Assembly (NCBI GenBank): GCA_030606515.1
Contig: JAUWGF010000001.1
Coordinates: 1-40,571, forward strand
Length of the DNA: 40,571 nucleotides
DNA from: Deltaproteobacteria bacterium
GTDB lineage: Bacteria > Desulfobacterota > Dissulfuribacteria > Dissulfuribacterales > UBA3076
Direction of reading: 5' to 3'
The number at the start of each line of letters is the position of its first letter. The first letter of the stretch is position 1. Below are positions 17,702 through 24,967 of the stretch, piece after piece. A program made the position numbers and the translations under genes. Below the pieces are notes generated by a model, which was given only the letters and a program-made list of their open reading frames with translations, made no database searches and was not told where the DNA came from.

Positions 17702-18742
17702 CTAAATGATCAGGTTTGGAATTTCCATTTCCCCATTTTGGAAAGCTCTGATGAAAGCATCGACGACTTTGGGATCAAAATCCTTTCCCGAACCTTTAAC
17801 GATGATTTCCTTGGCTTTAAATGGAGATACTGCCTTGCGGTAAGGACGATCGCTTACCAGGGCATCATATACATCTGCCACGGAGAGGACTTTAGCCTCT
17901 ATAGGGATCTTTTCCCCTTTGATCGGATGATAGCCTGATCCATCATACTTGTCGTGGTGAGCCAAAATGATAGGAATAATGTTGCCCAGGGGAGCTTCTA
18001 CTAAATCCAGAATATCAGCACCCAGTTCCACATGGTTTTTCATTGTTTCACGCTCTTTCTCGGTCAATTGCGCTGCCTTGTAAAGAATTTCCCGGCCGAT
18101 ATCGATTTTTCCAATGTCATGGAGCAAGGCAGCGGCACGAACCGTTTCAATTTGTTGAGGAGCGAGTCCGAGGTAGGTAGCGATCTTAGCTGAATAGATC
18201 GAAACGCGGTAACAATGGTTTTCGGTATACTTATCTTTGGAAATGAAATGGCGCAGAATCACCAGAAGACCCCGGTAGGTCTTTTGGAGTTCACGCATCT
18301 GTAGTGCCTGACGCTCATAGAGAGTACCCATTGAATATGCAATAATCACTAACATACTGGCCCAAGCCATGATTTCATACCATTGGCCGCTCACTGAATT
18401 GAATTGTTCCATCTCGTTGAACAGATCTGAGTTGAAGTGTAAAACAAGACCTACTAGTAAGATGCTGGCCACTGCAGTCAGAACGGCATGGCGACGTCCG
18501 AAAAAATAGGCGGAAAAAATGGTAGGAATGACGTATAGCTGCAGCAACATCTGTTGGGCGGTCAACAGATAATTCATGATGCCAATGATAGAAAACATGG
18601 ACAAGATCATCCACAGCTCTTTGTTCGCTTCCATAATCTGGCGCAACAATTTTGTCTTCCATCGCCGAAATTTGTCTGAAGTTAAACCGGGCGGTATAGT
18701 GTCGAGAATCAATTCTTCTCTGCTTTTAGCTTGCTCAGTCAT
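17702..18742 (-). CDS. Membrane-anchored HD-GYP-type phosphohydrolase (probable c-di-GMP phosphodiesterase), variant GYHP motif
   Basis: About 5 TM helices, then the HD domain (AALLHDIGKI) and HHDKYDGSGYHP in place of HHExxDGxGYP. ATG 18742 has SD agggggg. The alternative upstream ATG is at 18772. Confidence 0.8.
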   Translation of the reverse strand: MTEQAKSREELILDTIPPGLTSDKFRRWKTKLLRQIMEANKELWMILSMFSIIGIMNYLLTAQQMLLQLYVIPTIFSAYFFGRRHAVLTAVASILLVGLVLHFNSDLFNEMEQFNSVSGQWYEIMAWASMLVIIAYSMGTLYERQALQMRELQKTYRGLLVILRHFISKDKYTENHCYRVSIYSAKIATYLGLAPQQIETVRAAALLHDIGKIDIGREILYKAAQLTEKERETMKNHVELGADILDLVEAPLGNIIPIILAHHDKYDGSGYHPIKGEKIPIEAKVLSVADVYDALVSDRPYRKAVSPFKAKEIIVKGSGKDFDPKVVDAFIRAFQNGEMEIPNLII

Positions 18743-18817
18743 TTTAACCCCCCTGCCATTAACTTCGAGCATCCAATAAAAAAAATCCCATGAGACATTC
18801 TTTTTGACCTTAATTTG

Positions 18818-18844
18818 TTATCGACCATTAAGTTCAATTTCTTA
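18818..18844 (-). promoter_or_regulatory. Sigma-28 (FliA)-like promoter for the HD-GYP gene
   Basis: Minus strand TAAG (18844..18841), N15, GTCGATAA (18825..18818). The consensus I recall is TAAA-N15-GCCGATAA. Confidence 0.5.
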
Positions 18845-18849
18845 AAAAT

Positions 18850-18882
18850 GGAAGGTGGATACACGCTCATTCTGGAAAAAAC
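18850..18882 (+). pseudogene. 33-nt relic of an skp paralogue
   Basis: ggaaggtggatacacgctcattctggaaaaaac compared with skp 15551-15584 ggaaggtggatatacactcattctggaaaaaaac. Both substitutions are synonymous in the skp frame (tat->tac, aca->acg). Similarity ends abruptly on both sides. Confidence 0.55.
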
Positions 18883-18963
18883 GCGGAGTGCACTTGGATG
18901 TGTGAGCACTTTTAACAACGAGCAACGCAGCCATCGGACCAAAGACAGAATTCTGCATAAGCC

Positions 18964-19764
18964 TCAGGATTTTCCTGGTTCGGTCATCTTATCATCACCA
19001 ACAAGCTCGGGAAGCAGATCTACCAGTCTCAACCAGATCTGTTTCAATGGTCCCGGATCAAAACTATTGCTGCCGTAGCTTGTTGAAAGGGCCTCGACCA
19101 GTCTCTCTTCCCACTCGTCAAGAGCTGCCGCCACCTCACCGTAATCCATGTATTTTGCAGAGGCCCTTAGCCTTTTTATTGCATCCTGACTGGCAGACAA
19201 CCATTCCTCCTCGGGCCAGTCAGGCACATTGGCCAGAGGTTCGGATACCTCTTTTGAGAACAAAGGAGTAATTGCTCCATCCCTAGCCTTTATCGCATTC
19301 CGGGCCTGTCGATCCGGTAATCCCGAATCATGGCCGGGAGTTGCTTCGCGTGCGTCAGAATCGACTTTCTCCGACCGTGAATCAAAGAGTATGGCGTTCT
19401 GATCTTCAACATTGTCTAATGCACTGCTTGATTCCGCATTCTTCTCTGCTACTTCTTGCACCAGCTTCTGTAATCGATCCAGCCTTGAAAAAATCAGGTT
19501 AATAACATCTTCTGTAAAAACCAGACTACCCTTACGGGCCTTATCAAACAGATTTTCCATACTATGGGCAAGTGTGGCTATTTGTTCAAGGCCCACATGG
19601 TCCGCTGCACCTTTTATACTTTGCATATTACGAAAACATTCATCCAGAAAAGAAGAGTTGTGAGACTCCTGTCCTAATAGCAACAGGTTTAATTCCATCT
19701 CCTGGAGGTTTCCCTCGACTTCAACAACAAAATTTTGCAAAATTTCCTGATCAAACTGATTCAT
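18964..19764 (-). CDS. CheA-P1-like Hpt domain protein with Gln in place of the phospho-accepting His
   Basis: Residues 40-80 read LDECFRNMQSIKGAADHVGLEQIATLAHSMENLFDKARKG. This parallels CheA P1 FRAAHSIKGG...HLMENLLDEARRG (recalled). Codon 48 is CAA (19623..19621). The C-terminal roughly 150 aa are acidic and unrecognised. SD aggggat. Confidence 0.75.
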   Translation of the reverse strand: MNQFDQEILQNFVVEVEGNLQEMELNLLLLGQESHNSSFLDECFRNMQSIKGAADHVGLEQIATLAHSMENLFDKARKGSLVFTEDVINLIFSRLDRLQKLVQEVAEKNAESSSALDNVEDQNAILFDSRSEKVDSDAREATPGHDSGLPDRQARNAIKARDGAITPLFSKEVSEPLANVPDWPEEEWLSASQDAIKRLRASAKYMDYGEVAAALDEWEERLVEALSTSYGSNSFDPGPLKQIWLRLVDLLPELVGDDKMTEPGKS

Positions 19765-20007: not shown

Positions 20008-20406
20008 TTGGCTGATTTAGTGCTGACCGCCTCAGTCCTGGAAGAAACCAGAATACAGATAGAAAACACCCTTATTAAGGCAGGCGTTAATAATGTGCTC
20101 CTGGTTGATGAAGCGGGCAATATAGTAGTTGCTTGCGGGCACAAAATCTACAACATGGACACTACATCTCTTGCTGCGCTGGCAGCAGCTAACTTTGGCG
20201 CCAGTTCACAGATTGCAAAGTTGATAGGAGAGGACGACTTTGCACTCCTGTTTCACAAAGGGAAAAAAGACAGCATACACGTTGCACGAATAGGCACTGA
20301 TTTGATCCTGGTAACAATTTTCGGAGACAATGTTTCACTGGGCTTGATCAGGCTGAGAGTAGCACAATTGGCAAAAACTATAGAAAAGACATTTGGCCAA
20401 AAATAA
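20008..20406 (+). CDS. mglB: MglB, a Roadblock/LC7-fold GTPase-activating protein
   Basis: NVLLVDEAGNIV, DTTSLAALAAANFGASSQIAKLIGEDDF, FHKGKKDS, SLGLIRLR all closely parallel Myxococcus MglB as I recall it. TTG start with SD ggggag 8 nt upstream. Confidence 0.85.
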   Translation: MADLVLTASVLEETRIQIENTLIKAGVNNVLLVDEAGNIVVACGHKIYNMDTTSLAALAAANFGASSQIAKLIGEDDFALLFHKGKKDSIHVARIGTDLILVTIFGDNVSLGLIRLRVAQLAKTIEKTFGQK

Positions 20407-21084: not shown

Positions 21085-22611
21085 ATGGATCAGACACAAA
21101 AAATCCCTGATCCCAAGAACTTCACTGAAAACCTAGAAAGTACTATTGACGAACTATTTAGTGCATCACGACAGATAGAAATCGACCCCTTAACTAATGA
21201 AGTGAAGGATTTGTCGCAAGACAAAACAGATCAAGGAACGTCCTTTCAGGTTGTAGACCAGGGAGAAAAGCATCCGGAAGAAATCCAGATCTCAGATACC
21301 ATAGAGATGGAAGCTCCTGCTCAACAAATAGATATTACCACTGACGAAAAGATATTGGAATTAGATTCAGGGCCGGAGCTGGAGCCTGAAGAGAAAGAGA
21401 CTGAGGCTGTCAATCTGGAACAACAGTTCAGCCAACTCAATCAGCTGTTGTTGACCCTGGAGTGGGAGGTCACTCAACCACACGTAGTATCAGCCAAAAA
21501 CCTGATAGAGACAATCCGGAAAAATCCAAAGATAGAGGCAGACAAAAATCTCCACGAACTGTTCAATCTTATAATAAGGATCCTTGAAGGGATGGCGGAC
21601 AATCCTGAAAAAGTGCCCACTTCCGGGCCCGAAGCCCTGCAGAAAGGCCTTGACAGTTTAAAAAACCTTGTTTGGAACGAGGAACAGGACCCAAAGGCTA
21701 AAGAGGAACTCTTGAGATCCGCCAAGAAAGAGCTTGAATCAGCCATAGACATGGCAGTGCCTGAGGTTGCCCACGAAGTGTCCGAGGAGGCGGTTTCAGA
21801 ACGCCTTGTTGAGGATGTTAATGATCTTGAACCAGTGCTTGAAGATGCAGTCAAATTCCATATCAAAGTCCTTGATGACTGTATAGGTTATATTTTACCA
21901 GTTGAAAAGCTCCTTGCCCGGACTCCGGGGATGGAAAAGCTACATCATTTTCAGCAAAATGTTAAAAGCAGGCTTGAAAAACAAAAGAAAATATTGGAAA
22001 AGGCCTTAACCGGCGATTACGAGCCATCAGTTGATGTGCGTGATTATGCTGCTCAACAAACCGAAGACATCACCATAGAAATTGATAAAAAAGAAGAAAC
22101 ACCCTCAGTGACCATATCCTGCCCGTGGTATGAACTTGTAATTGCCCAATGGGACCAGAAGCAAGTGGCATTTGTCCCTGAAGATGTAGCATTTGCCGGG
22201 ACTGCTCCCTGGCGGGCCAAGAAAGGCATTAATAAGCTGGAAACCTTTAAATTAAAGAAGCTCAAGACCTGGCCATGGACAAAGCTTCAGCCATTGATGC
22301 AAGGGGAATTGTCGAATCAGGAAGAATCACAGCTTATAAAACTCGAGTTTCCGGTATTGCAAAAATCGATTTCATCTTTCAGCTACTCTCAGCCCCCAGA
22401 CAATCCGACTGTATCAGTCTTATGCCGTGGGGATAAAGGACTGGTCCTCATGCTGGACACCCCTTTAGAGACCATTTCTGTAACACCTGAGTGTTCATGG
22501 GAACCGTCCGCAGAAAGTAATGGACCATGGGTCGGCAACCTGAAGATAGAAAACAAACAAATATCCGTGGCAACGCTGGAAAGTCTCTTAAATACACTGA
22601 CAAATGAATAA
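21085..22611 (+). CDS. Orphan acidic protein (508 aa), function unknown; possible degenerate CheW-like C-terminal domain
   Basis: Strong SD aaggaga. The first roughly 120 aa are rich in E, D and Q. A helical middle follows (LLLTLEWEVTQPHVVSAKNLIETI...). The beta-rich C-terminus (YELVIAQWDQKQVAFVPEDVAF ... VSVLCRGDKGLVLMLDTPLETISV ... VGNLKIENKQISVATLESLL) is loosely CheW-like. Its stop overlaps the next start. Confidence 0.6.
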   Translation: MDQTQKIPDPKNFTENLESTIDELFSASRQIEIDPLTNEVKDLSQDKTDQGTSFQVVDQGEKHPEEIQISDTIEMEAPAQQIDITTDEKILELDSGPELEPEEKETEAVNLEQQFSQLNQLLLTLEWEVTQPHVVSAKNLIETIRKNPKIEADKNLHELFNLIIRILEGMADNPEKVPTSGPEALQKGLDSLKNLVWNEEQDPKAKEELLRSAKKELESAIDMAVPEVAHEVSEEAVSERLVEDVNDLEPVLEDAVKFHIKVLDDCIGYILPVEKLLARTPGMEKLHHFQQNVKSRLEKQKKILEKALTGDYEPSVDVRDYAAQQTEDITIEIDKKEETPSVTISCPWYELVIAQWDQKQVAFVPEDVAFAGTAPWRAKKGINKLETFKLKKLKTWPWTKLQPLMQGELSNQEESQLIKLEFPVLQKSISSFSYSQPPDNPTVSVLCRGDKGLVLMLDTPLETISVTPECSWEPSAESNGPWVGNLKIENKQISVATLESLLNTLTNE

Positions 22612-24967
22612 TCTCGATTCAACTTCGGACAATTTAATTAAAACCAGGTTGGCAGAAGTCGATCTTTACTGTAGTCAAGGTCTTAATAAAGAAGCTCGTC
22701 TTATTTGTTTAGAGCTTCTGAAACTGACAGGTGATAAGTCCCATCCCCTCTATACTGAAGTAGAGTCCCGTCTGAAAGGACTTCAGTTTAATGGCATAGA
22801 AACAGTCCCGTCAGGAAAAACGGATTTCACCACCAGCCCTGAAGATCTTAAACCTGAAGACCTTAAAGAATATCAGGACAATCAATTCAACAGTTGTATA
22901 GGTCTGATAGAAGCGGGCTTTCATTCAGAGGCCATAGAGGAGCTTAAAGCCTTACTTGTAGCAGGATACAGGCCGGGAATAATTCGAGCGAAAATCGGAG
23001 AATCATACCTGCGGCTGGATACGCCCTTTGAGGCCCTTGAGTATTTACAGGAGGCGATTGAGGACACGCAACTATCCAAGGATGAACGTCTGGATGTACT
23101 ATATCAACTGGTACTTACCCATGAACGAACAGGCGCGGTGCCCAAGGCCATTGAGGCTCTGGAACAAATCATCCGCCTTGATCCCGCCTTTAGAAACGCC
23201 AAACAGAGGCTTGAGGAACTTTCCCAAACAGCGCAGAAATATGGCCGGTTCTATTATCTGATTCGTAATCAGTTCCTCTCTGAAGAACAACTCAAAAGGA
23301 CCAAAGAACTGGCCAAACAGGGAAAAAAATCCATAGAAAGTATCCTGCTAAACCAGGTTGGCATAGACAAGACAGAGCTTGGCCGCTCCCTCAGCGAATA
23401 CTATCGATGCCCCTTTGTGGAATTTGACGAACTGGAAGTAGGAACCACACCATCTTGCGTGCGCGGTATCAAAGAACATTTTTTCAGGACCAATTCCTGT
23501 GCCCCGATTCGCGAAAAATTAGGGACCCTTATAGTTGCACTGGACAACCCCCATGACTTAGCAAAGATAGACAATATAAGAAGGGTCCTTAAGGCCAAAG
23601 GCTTTCAATTTGCAGTTTCCCTAAAGGAAGATATCAACAGATTCATAGACTATTTCTATGGGAAATATTCCACAGGAGGATCTGATGATGACGTGTTTGA
23701 GCAATTGGAAGTTGTTGATGAGGATACGGAACTCGAGGAAGAGGATAATGGCTTAGCATCAGATGCTGATAGCGTAGTAGTACAGATAGCCAATAAAACC
23801 ATAGAGGATGCCTATCATCGCAGGGCCTCTGATATTCACATTGAATCCCTGGCAGGCAAACGGGGGGCCCTGGTCCGCTTCAGGATCGATGGCGACTGTA
23901 TGCGTTATCAGACCGTTCCGTATAACTACAAGCGGGCCATGATTTCCAGAATCAAGATCATGTCCAACCTTGACATTGCCGAGAAACGCCTGCCTCAAGA
24001 CGGAAAAATAAAGTTCAGGACTCGCTCTGGTAAAACCCTGGAATTACGTGTAGCCACACTTCCCACAACTGAAGGCAACGAAGATATCGTACTCAGGCTA
24101 CTGGGCTCTTCCGAGGCCATGCCGATTGATCGCATAGGGCTCCTTGATCAAAACCTGGAGCAGCTAAAACAGCTTTTGCAATTGCCTTATGGGCTTATAT
24201 TGGCAGTTGGTCCTACCGGATCAGGAAAGACAACTACCCTGCATGCTGCACTTGGCTATATAAATCGGCCTGAGAAAAAAATCTGGACAGCGGAAGATCC
24301 TGTAGAAATCATGCAGGATGGATTGCGCCAGGTGCAGGTGAAACCCGGTATCGGCCTGACTTTTGCCCGGATTCTCAGGGCCTTTTTAAGGGCAGATCCG
24401 GATGTGATAATGATCGGCGAAACTCGAGACGAAGAAACTGCCACAACCGCAATAGAAGCATCCCTGACAGGTCACCTGGTCTTTTCAACCCTCCATACCA
24501 ATTCCGCCCCTGAGACAGTTACAAGGCTTTTAGGAATGGGAATGGACCCATTCAACTTTGCTGACGCCCTCTTGGGGGTCTTGGCACAGAGGCTTGTAAA
24601 AAGACTTTGTCCCAAGTGCCGCGAGGCCTATCAGCCTGATGACCACGAGAAAAAACATATTTTACACGAGTACGGGCATCATCCAACTCAACCCTTAGAG
24701 TTATCAGACCTAAATGAAATAACACTTTATCGGCCAAAGGGCTGCCAACATTGCAACAGGACCGGCTTCAGAGGCAGGCTTGCAATCCACGAACTACTGG
24801 TGTCAGATGACGGTCTCAAAAAGCTCATTCAGGAAAAACGCCCCGTGGGAGAGATACGGGAACATGCCATGAAGCATGGAATGTCGATCCTGAAACAGGA
24901 CGGCATACAAAAGGTCTTAAGGGGAGATACAGATCTGAAACAGATTAGGGCAGCCTGCATAAGGTAA
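22604..24967 (+). CDS. TPR::T2SSE_N::PilB/GspE-family secretion ATPase fusion
   Basis: Residues 1 to about 205 are TPR-like (e.g. GFHSEAIEELKALL, AIEALEQIIRLDPAFRNAKQRLEEL). Residues about 215-350 are a GspE-N-type domain (LGRSLSEYYRCPFVEFD). The ATPase core has Walker A GPTGSGKTTT, TAEDPVE, Walker B DPDVIMIGETRD, His box TGHLVFSTLHTN, and the tetra-Cys motif CPKC...CQHC. Confidence 0.85.
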   Translation: MNNLDSTSDNLIKTRLAEVDLYCSQGLNKEARLICLELLKLTGDKSHPLYTEVESRLKGLQFNGIETVPSGKTDFTTSPEDLKPEDLKEYQDNQFNSCIGLIEAGFHSEAIEELKALLVAGYRPGIIRAKIGESYLRLDTPFEALEYLQEAIEDTQLSKDERLDVLYQLVLTHERTGAVPKAIEALEQIIRLDPAFRNAKQRLEELSQTAQKYGRFYYLIRNQFLSEEQLKRTKELAKQGKKSIESILLNQVGIDKTELGRSLSEYYRCPFVEFDELEVGTTPSCVRGIKEHFFRTNSCAPIREKLGTLIVALDNPHDLAKIDNIRRVLKAKGFQFAVSLKEDINRFIDYFYGKYSTGGSDDDVFEQLEVVDEDTELEEEDNGLASDADSVVVQIANKTIEDAYHRRASDIHIESLAGKRGALVRFRIDGDCMRYQTVPYNYKRAMISRIKIMSNLDIAEKRLPQDGKIKFRTRSGKTLELRVATLPTTEGNEDIVLRLLGSSEAMPIDRIGLLDQNLEQLKQLLQLPYGLILAVGPTGSGKTTTLHAALGYINRPEKKIWTAEDPVEIMQDGLRQVQVKPGIGLTFARILRAFLRADPDVIMIGETRDEETATTAIEASLTGHLVFSTLHTNSAPETVTRLLGMGMDPFNFADALLGVLAQRLVKRLCPKCREAYQPDDHEKKHILHEYGHHPTQPLELSDLNEITLYRPKGCQHCNRTGFRGRLAIHELLVSDDGLKKLIQEKRPVGEIREHAMKHGMSILKQDGIQKVLRGDTDLKQIRAACIR

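Follow-up and report, generated by a model that had tools for sequence, protein, structure and literature searches.

A tetratricopeptide repeat-headed, PilB-like ATPase encoded in a conserved cassette with MglA and MglB in Thermodesulfobacteriota

To our knowledge, the switching of a pilus motor at one cell pole by a Ras-like GTPase is known in outline only for Myxococcus. The Myxococcus route uses separate adaptors, SgmX, FrzS and SopA, whose contact with the motor ATPase PilB is still undefined. In Bdellovibrio, the tetratricopeptide repeat (TPR) protein Bd2492 is also a separate protein, and we know of no MglB in this organism. In M. xanthus, the GTP-bound form of the GTPase MglA binds to a three-TPR unit (TPR12-14) of SgmX (PMC7668184), and PilB-dependent formation of pili requires SgmX (PMC7668184, PMC7519303). 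For Bdellovibrio, MglA is reported to be a partner of Bd2492 in the control of polar type IV pili (PMC3983030). Here, we describe an open reading frame (ORF) of 787 amino acids (aa) in which TPRs are joined to the N terminus of a PilB/GspE-family ATPase and which is the final gene of a tight cassette, mglB-mglA-X-ATPase, X being a protein without a recognized family. This cassette is located in a stretch of 40,571 nucleotides (nt) of contig JAUWGF010000001.1 (GenBank assembly GCA_030606515.1; Deltaproteobacteria bacterium, order Dissulfuribacterales), the whole of which is termed the window.

The M. xanthus pathway (PMC7668184, PMC7519303, PMC11580455) functionally connects MglA and its GTPase-activating protein (GAP) MglB with a TPR module and an ATPase of the PilB type, and the window encodes a likeness of each of these components. 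By description, the likeness extends to the receptor, as the MglA-GTP receptor of SgmX is a three-TPR unit and the main block of the head of the window protein consists of three TPRs and a cap; Bd2492 is likened in the same manner, being a TPR protein associated with MglA. The arrangements differ in that SgmX is a separate 14-TPR protein and the M. xanthus PilB lacks TPRs, whereas in the window the TPRs are within the ATPase and mglBA is in the same operon; Bd2492, likewise, is a separate protein. The module of the window also has an extra, CheA-like protein (X), and its ATPase is a paralogue from outside the PilB clade. The ATPase family itself is known; the new elements are the head on an ATPase of the PilB/GspE family and the hard-wired partnership with mglBA and X.

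Conservation of the fusion and its gene cassette

The initial annotation of this DNA had read the ORF as an unusual fusion of TPRs to an ATPase, of which the spread was to be mapped. The fusion is real and conserved and has no dedicated annotation. Searches with residues 1 to 215 as the query returned 63 clusters of proteins of 768 to 832 aa, plus one truncated match of 609 aa; all 63 clusters carry MshEN and T2SSE domains, and the identity of the head falls to 39%. With residues 205 to 500 as the query, more than 120 clusters (90% identity) with the same TPR-MshEN-T2SSE architecture were detected, the source names of which were generic ("type II/IV secretion system protein," "TadA" or "tetratricopeptide repeat protein"). 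With each species represented by a single genome, TPR-headed ATPases were detected in at least 103 species genomes, all of them from the Thermodesulfobacteriota. The carriers include metagenome-assembled genomes (MAGs) of Seep-SRB2 (84 to 90% identity), Dissulfurimicrobium, MAGs labeled Thermodesulfatator and Desulfobulbia; two isolates, Desulfurivibrio dismutans and Hydrosulfovibrio ferrireducens, and some genomes assembled into a single contig also belong to this set. No description of a TPR- or GAF-headed PilB-like ATPase or of an mglB-mglA-X-ATPase operon was found in the literature, and literature searches on MglA in Desulfobacterota produced nothing relevant. In a 2014 survey of prokaryotic small GTPases, the neighborhoods of the relevant MglA groups are variable, with no conserved link to an ATPase.

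Genomic linkage of the TPR-ATPase to mglBA and X is near-obligate. A total of 80 related loci were collected, and 63 of them, in which 3.3 kb or more of DNA precedes the ATPase gene, were counted as informative. The colinear order mglB-mglA-X-ATPase was present in 61 of these 63 loci, the exceptions being L017, in which mglB was not detected, and L077 (see below), and in 69 loci X was the sole ORF between mglA and the ATPase gene. The cassette is kept as the identity of the ATPase drops to 47% and that of X to 23%. In the window, mglA starts 7 nt past the stop of mglB, and the last 8 nt of X are also the first 8 nt of the ATPase gene (ATGAATAA). One MglA homologue each, always in the cassette, was detected in five related genomes (four of the window's own order, which are ~99% complete, and D. 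dismutans, for which completeness was not reported), and the one MglA found in the MAG under study is that of the cassette. The GTPase of the window matches, over its full length, MglA of M. xanthus (6hjh and 5ymx; E = 1.8e-57) and MglA of T. thermophilus (3t12; E = 1e-55) and carries the P-loop GPGRCGKTT and the MglA-type motif YTVPGQ; judged by these matches, it is a true MglA with an MglB Roadblock partner. The mglB product matched the NCBIfam MglB model NF052242 at an E value of 7.2e-15, a score below the cut-off of this model.

A wider survey covered 151 sampled genomes of the phylum, with follow-up of selected loci. At one of these loci (L116:2986-8508; G149:C203), the gene after mglB-mglA-X encodes a Ser/Thr kinase of 718 aa in place of the ATPase. 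Residues 1 to 227 of this kinase and residues 6 to 213 of the window protein are colinear (26% identity; E = 1e-22), in an alignment that runs from the first hairpin of the head across the spacer and through its three TPRs, and the C-terminal domain of the X protein at this locus was recognized at 97% probability. As a homologous head is present on the kinase, it is the head, and not the ATPase, that travels with mglBA and X. This head-on-kinase arrangement provides the strongest evidence here for the head being the probable coupling module. A connection to MglA had been guessed in the initial annotation from the TPR fold, and this guess is now strongly backed by gene context in the form of the 61 colinear loci, the single MglA per genome and the kinase-borne head.

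Other arrangements were also detected in the phylum. At L114, mglA directly abuts the gene for the TPR-ATPase, with no X in between, and the neighboring genes encode a ParA-like ATPase, a double-receiver-PATAN regulator, a receiver-HDOD protein and a PAS-domain histidine kinase-like protein. At L115, the ATPase gene adjoins two mglB genes, mglA and a gene whose product shares the helical bundle of X (92% probability in hhalign). In a family designated f43, X and the TPR-ATPase are encoded together with a PATAN protein and a Cache-HAMP protein; for three of the four genomes, the only MglA that was detected is encoded on the same strand, 6.7 to 8.7 kb farther upstream. PATAN (DUF4388/PatA_N) proteins, often fused to receiver domains, recur beside the cassette in distant relatives (Table 1) and are sometimes accompanied by Che-type genes or Cache-HAMP proteins.

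Domain layout of the ATPase and of protein X

Every motif quoted for the 787-aa ORF in the initial annotation was located (Table 1), and, as far as can be read from the sequence, the catalytic motif set of the TPR-headed ATPase is fully intact. The catalytic and zinc motifs, including K542, E606, H624, H631, C669, C672, C714 and C717, are invariant in 54 homologues, and the tetracysteine zinc motif is of a type typical of extension and secretion ATPases. Pfam assigned aa 388 to 781 to T2SSE (PF00437) with an E value of 5.7e-121 and a score of 404.1 bits (gathering cut-off, 24.9). In single-sequence searches of the PDB, the top match of the core was PilB of M. xanthus (3jc8; E = 6.7e-114), and further relatives were PilB of Geobacter (5tsg, 6olj and 5zfr) and PilF of Thermus; the PilB matches, with E values of 1e-107 to 7e-114, extended across residues 218 to 782 and so included the MshEN domain. 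An AlphaFold2 (AF2) model of the ATPase had a mean predicted local distance difference test (pLDDT) score of 72, with scores of 80 to 90 for the head. A Foldseek search with the full-length model matched only the cores of GspE, PilB and PilF, at E values of ~1e-31, and gave no head-specific match.

The head had been described as a TPR block of about 205 aa. Its identity as TPR stood up in PDB, profile and AF2 analyses; its continuity did not, the block being divided into a hairpin, a spacer and three TPRs. The first part contains helices at aa 9 to 24, 28 to 42 and 50 to 62 with pLDDT scores of ~80; E18, Y22, G26 and L27 of this part are invariant in 54 homologues, and the corresponding stretch of one homologue (P0071) gave a Pfam match to TPR_14. 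The spacer has pLDDT scores below 50 at aa 62 to 77 and differs in both sequence and length among the aligned homologues. The second part was modeled as seven helices (aa 84 to 210) with pLDDT scores of 85 to 90. Pfam TPR families remained below their gathering scores on the window protein (TPR_12, 23.6 bits for a cut-off of 30.1), and the NCBIfam MamA model matched aa 99 to 203. In a single-sequence search, a designed consensus-TPR protein (PDB entry 9qhb) matched residues 106 to 208 with an E value of 2.4e-11, and a family profile built from 13 heads matched consensus TPRs at an E value of 3.9e-26, as well as the TPRs of MamA and OGT. A filter-only phmmer scan of 1.84 billion representative proteins with residues 1 to 215 yielded 516 matches; ten of these were scanned, and all seven of the scanned proteins from outside the family were bona fide multi-TPR proteins aligning to residues ~90 to 210. 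Distant homologues of the head clear the Pfam TPR cut-offs. The head was identified as TPR because the consensus-TPR, profile, phmmer and fold-model tests agree, which goes beyond Pfam alone.

The head is followed by an MshEN domain, for which the Pfam match covers aa 267 to 353 (E = 3.4e-13; 49.8 bits for a cut-off of 23.1). In the AF2 model, aa 214 to 351 form a helical subdomain and then an alpha/beta subdomain, and this region aligns with residues 29 to 164 of Geobacter PilB. Residues F196, N198, F216 and L219, at the junction of the head and MshEN, are invariant or among the most conserved residues of the family (54 homologues). The cyclic di-GMP (c-di-GMP) motif of MshEN domains, which we take to be RLGxx(L/V/I)(L/V/I)xxG(L/V/I)(L/V/I)xxxxLxxxLxxQ in tandem copies of 24 residues, was scored in 24-residue segments as the number of positions, out of 11, that agreed with this consensus. 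The two best segments of the window protein were GRFYYLIRNQFLSEEQLKRTKELA, with 4 of 11 positions, and SIESILLNQVGIDKTELGRSLSEY, with 5 of 11 positions. Scores of 3 to 6 were obtained throughout 54 family members and a score of 5 for GAF-headed relatives (see below); PilB, PilB-like2 and GspE of related genomes scored 7 to 10 for at least one motif and 6 to 10 for the second best. The MshEN fold is retained, but canonical binding of c-di-GMP appears to be unlikely. MshE of V. cholerae (5htl) similarly has an MshEN fold ahead of a T2SSE ATPase and was matched weakly (E = 0.06); in contrast to MshE-type receptors, the window protein agrees with the motif at only 4 to 5 of the 11 positions in both copies. 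The initial annotation had placed an acidic linker between the TPR block and the GspE-N-type domain. This linker is present, as the acidic string EVVDEDTELEEEDNG (aa 369 to 383; nt 23708 to 23752); from the AF2 layout and the position of this motif, the linker therefore follows the MshEN domain and lies between MshEN and N2.

Protein X produced only a sub-threshold Pfam match to dCache_2 (E = 0.097) and no NCBIfam match. It consists of a short N-terminal motif, acidic disordered linkers, a bundle, a hairpin and a beta domain, modeled by AF2 as a helical bundle at aa 105 to 221, a coiled hairpin at aa 249 to 309 and a beta-rich, CheW/P5-like domain at aa 350 to 508; the pLDDT score of the model was 76, with values of ~90 for the folded parts. 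The N-terminal motif, IE.TID.LF...IEIDP.T.EV, is conserved, and an LEWEV motif is invariant. Foldseek matched X to CheW (9a72_B, E = 8.4e-5; 6s1k_C, E = 2.7e-4) and also to CheA P5, with target-normalized template modeling (TM) scores of 0.6 to 0.67. A weaker match to CheA P1 (1i5n; E = 0.06; TM score, 0.67) was, by our own assignment from the aligned length, probably to the helical bundle. Because of the CheW and CheA P5 matches and the weaker P1 match, X resembles a CheA devoid of its kinase domain.

Divergent from mglB, at positions 17702 to 19764 on the minus strand, are genes for a 265-aa Hpt-domain protein and for a membrane protein of the HD-GYP type with an HD_5 match and a sub-threshold match to MASE1. 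These signaling genes are swapped for full Che operons in relatives, for example at L009.

Table 1. Positions of the cassette genes, of the domains and motifs of the ATPase and of PATAN-domain neighbors at related loci
Feature	Position	Strand	Basis
mglB, Roadblock/LC7 GTPase-activating protein, 132 aa, first cassette gene	20008..20406	+	Pfam Robl_LC7, E 9.5e-15
mglA, Ras-like polarity GTPase, 205 aa	20414..21031	+	PDB matches, motifs
Protein X, 508 aa	21085..22611	+	No family match above threshold; AF2 and Foldseek
TPR-headed MshEN-T2SSE ATPase	22604..24967	+	787-aa ORF, read from sequence
Head part 1, one TPR-like helical hairpin and third helix (aa 9-62)	22628..22789	+	AF2, conservation
Variable low-confidence spacer (aa 63-83)	22790..22852	+	AF2, alignment
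Head part 2, three TPRs and capping helix (aa 84-210)	22853..23233	+	AF2, PDB searches
MshEN/GspE-N-type domain (aa 214-351), degenerate c-di-GMP motifs	23243..23656	+	Pfam, alignment, AF2
Acidic disordered linker (aa 356-386) containing EVVDEDTELEEEDNG	23669..23761	+	AF2 pLDDT <50
ATPase core, N2 (aa 387-500) and C-terminal P-loop domain (aa 501-787)	23762..24964	+	Pfam T2SSE, PDB, Foldseek
Walker A, GPTGSGKTTT	aa 536-545, nt 24209-24238	+	Motif location
Asp box, TAEDPVE	aa 562-568	+	Motif location
Walker B, DPDVIMIGETRD	aa 598-609	+	Motif location
His box, TGHLVFSTLHTN	aa 622-633	+	Motif location
Tetracysteine zinc motif	CPKC aa 669-672 and CQHC aa 714-717	+	Motif location
PATAN-domain neighbors	L008:10402-11529; L114:9102-10199; L117:12744-13517; L118:10903-11688; L009:642-2108		

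Docking on the head and competing explanations

On balance, we consider it probable that the TPR-headed motor ATPase is recruited or activated by MglA/MglB through its head and serves a polar, type IV pilus-like filament. The ATPase is a hexameric-type motor of the PilB/GspE family and belongs to a distinct, uncharacterized "headed" subfamily. According to this proposal, mglB, mglA, X and the ATPase gene would be co-transcribed and translationally coupled. The TPR head would be the docking surface for the MglA/MglB switch, in which MglB would act as the GAP, and would be contacted either by MglA-GTP directly or via X. Docking on the three-TPR unit would recruit or activate the ATPase at one cell pole, and the ATPase would then power the assembly of the filament on a platform whose genes are in another part of the genome. 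The module would, hence, be a cis-fused counterpart of the M. xanthus relay in which MglA-GTP acts through the TPRs of SgmX on PilB. What we infer is that MglA or X docks on the head, that the ATPase is localized at a pole and which machine it drives.

A number of observations weigh against this proposal, starting with the affiliation of the ATPase. On the NCBIfam equivalog model for PilB (TIGR02538), the window protein scored 502.5 bits, short of the cut-off of 675.65 bits, and the score on the GspE equivalog (TIGR02533) was 484.7 bits for a cut-off of 630.25 bits. By comparison, D. dismutans and H. ferrireducens have true PilB proteins with scores of 757 to 760 bits on TIGR02538; a six-frame search, which detected no sequence scoring at the PilB cut-off in the window's own order, detected none in any of 14 control genomes either and therefore carries no weight here. 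In a tree of the ATPase core only (33 sequences from few genomes, with no named reference set), from which N-terminal columns were excluded as a guard against bias due to the heads, the TPR- and GAF-headed ATPases formed their own clade on a long stem with 100/100 support, apart from PilB, GspE, the TfpB-like ATPases and PilB-like2. In addition, no platform gene adjoins the gene for the TPR-ATPase, the T2SSF genes being on other contigs, and the relative placement of the domains in the AF2 model of the ATPase is unreliable (predicted TM score, 0.37). TPRs bind many different partners, and X adjoins the ATPase even at loci where mglBA is several kb away (L117 and L118); from this adjacency, it follows that the head may bind X rather than MglA. 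One 100%-complete genome of family f43 (G079) has a TPR-headed ATPase and no MglA detectable at an E value of 1e-10, a possible natural uncoupling of MglA and the ATPase. Finally, at L077:5974-8382, a TPR-headed ATPase gene (60% identical) is located between a pseudouridine synthase gene and priA, without mglBA or X within 6 kb, and represents an unlinked copy with housekeeping neighbors.

The ATPase resembles canonical PilB (TIGR02538; 5tsg/6olj and 3jc8) in having an MshEN-type N-domain, N2, a P-loop domain, Asp and His boxes and the tetracysteine motif and differs from it in ~215 extra N-terminal residues, the lack of an adjacent pilC and the degenerate c-di-GMP motifs. The initial annotation had assigned a complete GspE-N plus PilB core to this protein. 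Completeness was borne out for the motifs, whereas the sub-cut-off scores, the separate clade and the degenerate MshEN motifs do not fit a canonical PilB. A Rosetta-stone argument had also been drawn from the fusion; the fusion is real, but a strict form of the argument would need parts homologous to SgmX or Bd2492 (for which generic TPR similarity would tell little) and to PilB, and it is not supported, the ATPase being a paralogue. The suggestion that the TPR-ATPase is the only or main PilB of the organism was rejected as unproven; related genomes hold three to five other ATPases of the PilB/GspE type. Besides their true PilB, D. dismutans and H. ferrireducens each have a GspE gene adjoining GspF, a second PilB-like gene adjoining a PilC-type gene and a TfpB-like ATPase. 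In favor of the proposal, parts of a type IV pilus are encoded elsewhere in the MAG under study, namely PilM, PilC-type platform proteins and two PilT-like ATPases. This MAG also contains an orphan TfpB-like ATPase of 579 aa (G000:C111:4243-5943), a GspE-like ATPase next to a gene for a GspG-like pseudopilin (C62:3-1580) and a PilC-type platform gene without an adjacent ATPase (C172:5744-6721), the last being a candidate partner for an orphan motor. One T2SSF gene without a neighboring ATPase gene was present in each of three genomes analyzed.

GAF-headed sister ATPases of 767 to 799 aa were present in seven genomes of the phylum (L108 to L113 and L119). These proteins are ~46 to 53% identical to the window protein over MshEN and the core; the GAF domain was detected in a Pfam scan of L108, and the other six share, as judged by eye, a conserved N-terminal block. 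They have the length class, the degenerate MshEN motifs and the clade in common with the TPR-headed ATPases and differ in bearing GAF instead of TPRs at the head position. No mglBA or X was detected within ~6 kb of these loci, and no characterization of GAF-headed ATPases was found in the literature.

It is possible, if rather unlikely, that the TPR head docks X or PATAN-domain response regulators and not MglA, in which case the cassette would be the output arm of a chemosensory system and MglA/MglB would act on X or its array, reaching the motor indirectly. X directly precedes the ATPase in the 69 loci noted above, is translationally coupled to it by the 8-nt overlap and remains adjacent in family f43, where mglA is 6.7 to 8.7 kb away. 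The CheW/CheA-P5 fold of the C-terminal domain of X, together with the weak CheA P1 match assigned to its bundle, also points in this direction, as does the presence of Che-type genes or PATAN regulators flanking the cassette at L009, L008, L114, L117 and L118. In Synechocystis, PATAN regulators reportedly interact with the type IV pilus motor (bioRxiv 10.1101/2021.06.11.447907). Against docking of X stand L114, at which no X intervenes between mglA and the TPR-ATPase, and the precedent of TPR units as receptors of MglA-GTP (PMC7668184). Docking of X and docking of MglA are not mutually exclusive.

An improbable explanation is that the head has no specific partner and controls hexamer assembly from within the protein, through auto-inhibition or as an aid to oligomerization, the link to mglBA being due only to co-expression in a motility regulon. 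The GAF sensor domain in the head position of the sister ATPases suggests that this site hosts a cis-acting regulatory module, and the loss of the MshEN c-di-GMP motifs indicates a re-wired regulatory input in the headed clade. However, a purely internal regulator is not expected on a Ser/Thr kinase in an mglB-mglA-X context (L116), and the order is kept at 47% ATPase identity and 23% X identity with a single MglA found per genome, both of which argue for more than co-expression.

That the junction arose from chimeric assembly or through an artefact of gene calling in the source MAG, which is fragmented (202 contigs; completeness, 76%), is effectively refuted because the uninterrupted architecture, with a colinear head-MshEN junction, is conserved in at least 103 independently assembled species genomes, isolates included, and because the junction-spanning residues named above rank among the most conserved of the family.

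Implications for polarity control and for the ATPase family

A broader and more tentative proposal, which we regard as conceivable rather than probable, is that the TPR head of ~210 residues is a portable receptor for an MglB/MglA/X switch, through which MglA would gate a pilus-type motor ATPase in the majority of lineages and a Ser/Thr kinase elsewhere. The headed ATPases might then be orphan PilB-like motors in which the c-di-GMP input has been replaced via the head and which compete or substitute on a shared type IV platform. If this is true, headed ATPases, whether with TPR or GAF heads, would constitute a previously unrecognized class of such motors. Input through the head, from a protein or a small molecule, would have taken over from c-di-GMP sensing by MshEN, and, depending on polarity, headed motors would compete with the housekeeping ATPase for a shared type IV filament platform or take its place there.

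In the preferred reading, in which MglA/MglB acts on the motor through the head, one polypeptide would combine the TPR adaptor and the motor and would be encoded beside the GTPase, its GAP and a scaffold. Such a module would be a minimal four-component system that could be reconstituted from purified proteins. The headed ATPases, at present annotated merely as "type II/IV secretion system protein," define a PilB-like subfamily in which the sensor head, TPR or GAF, is exchangeable and the c-di-GMP site has decayed. MglA-based control of polarity would be extended to sulfur-cycling Thermodesulfobacteriota, including the Seep-SRB2 partners of methane-oxidizing archaea, for which surface appendages are important for life in consortia.

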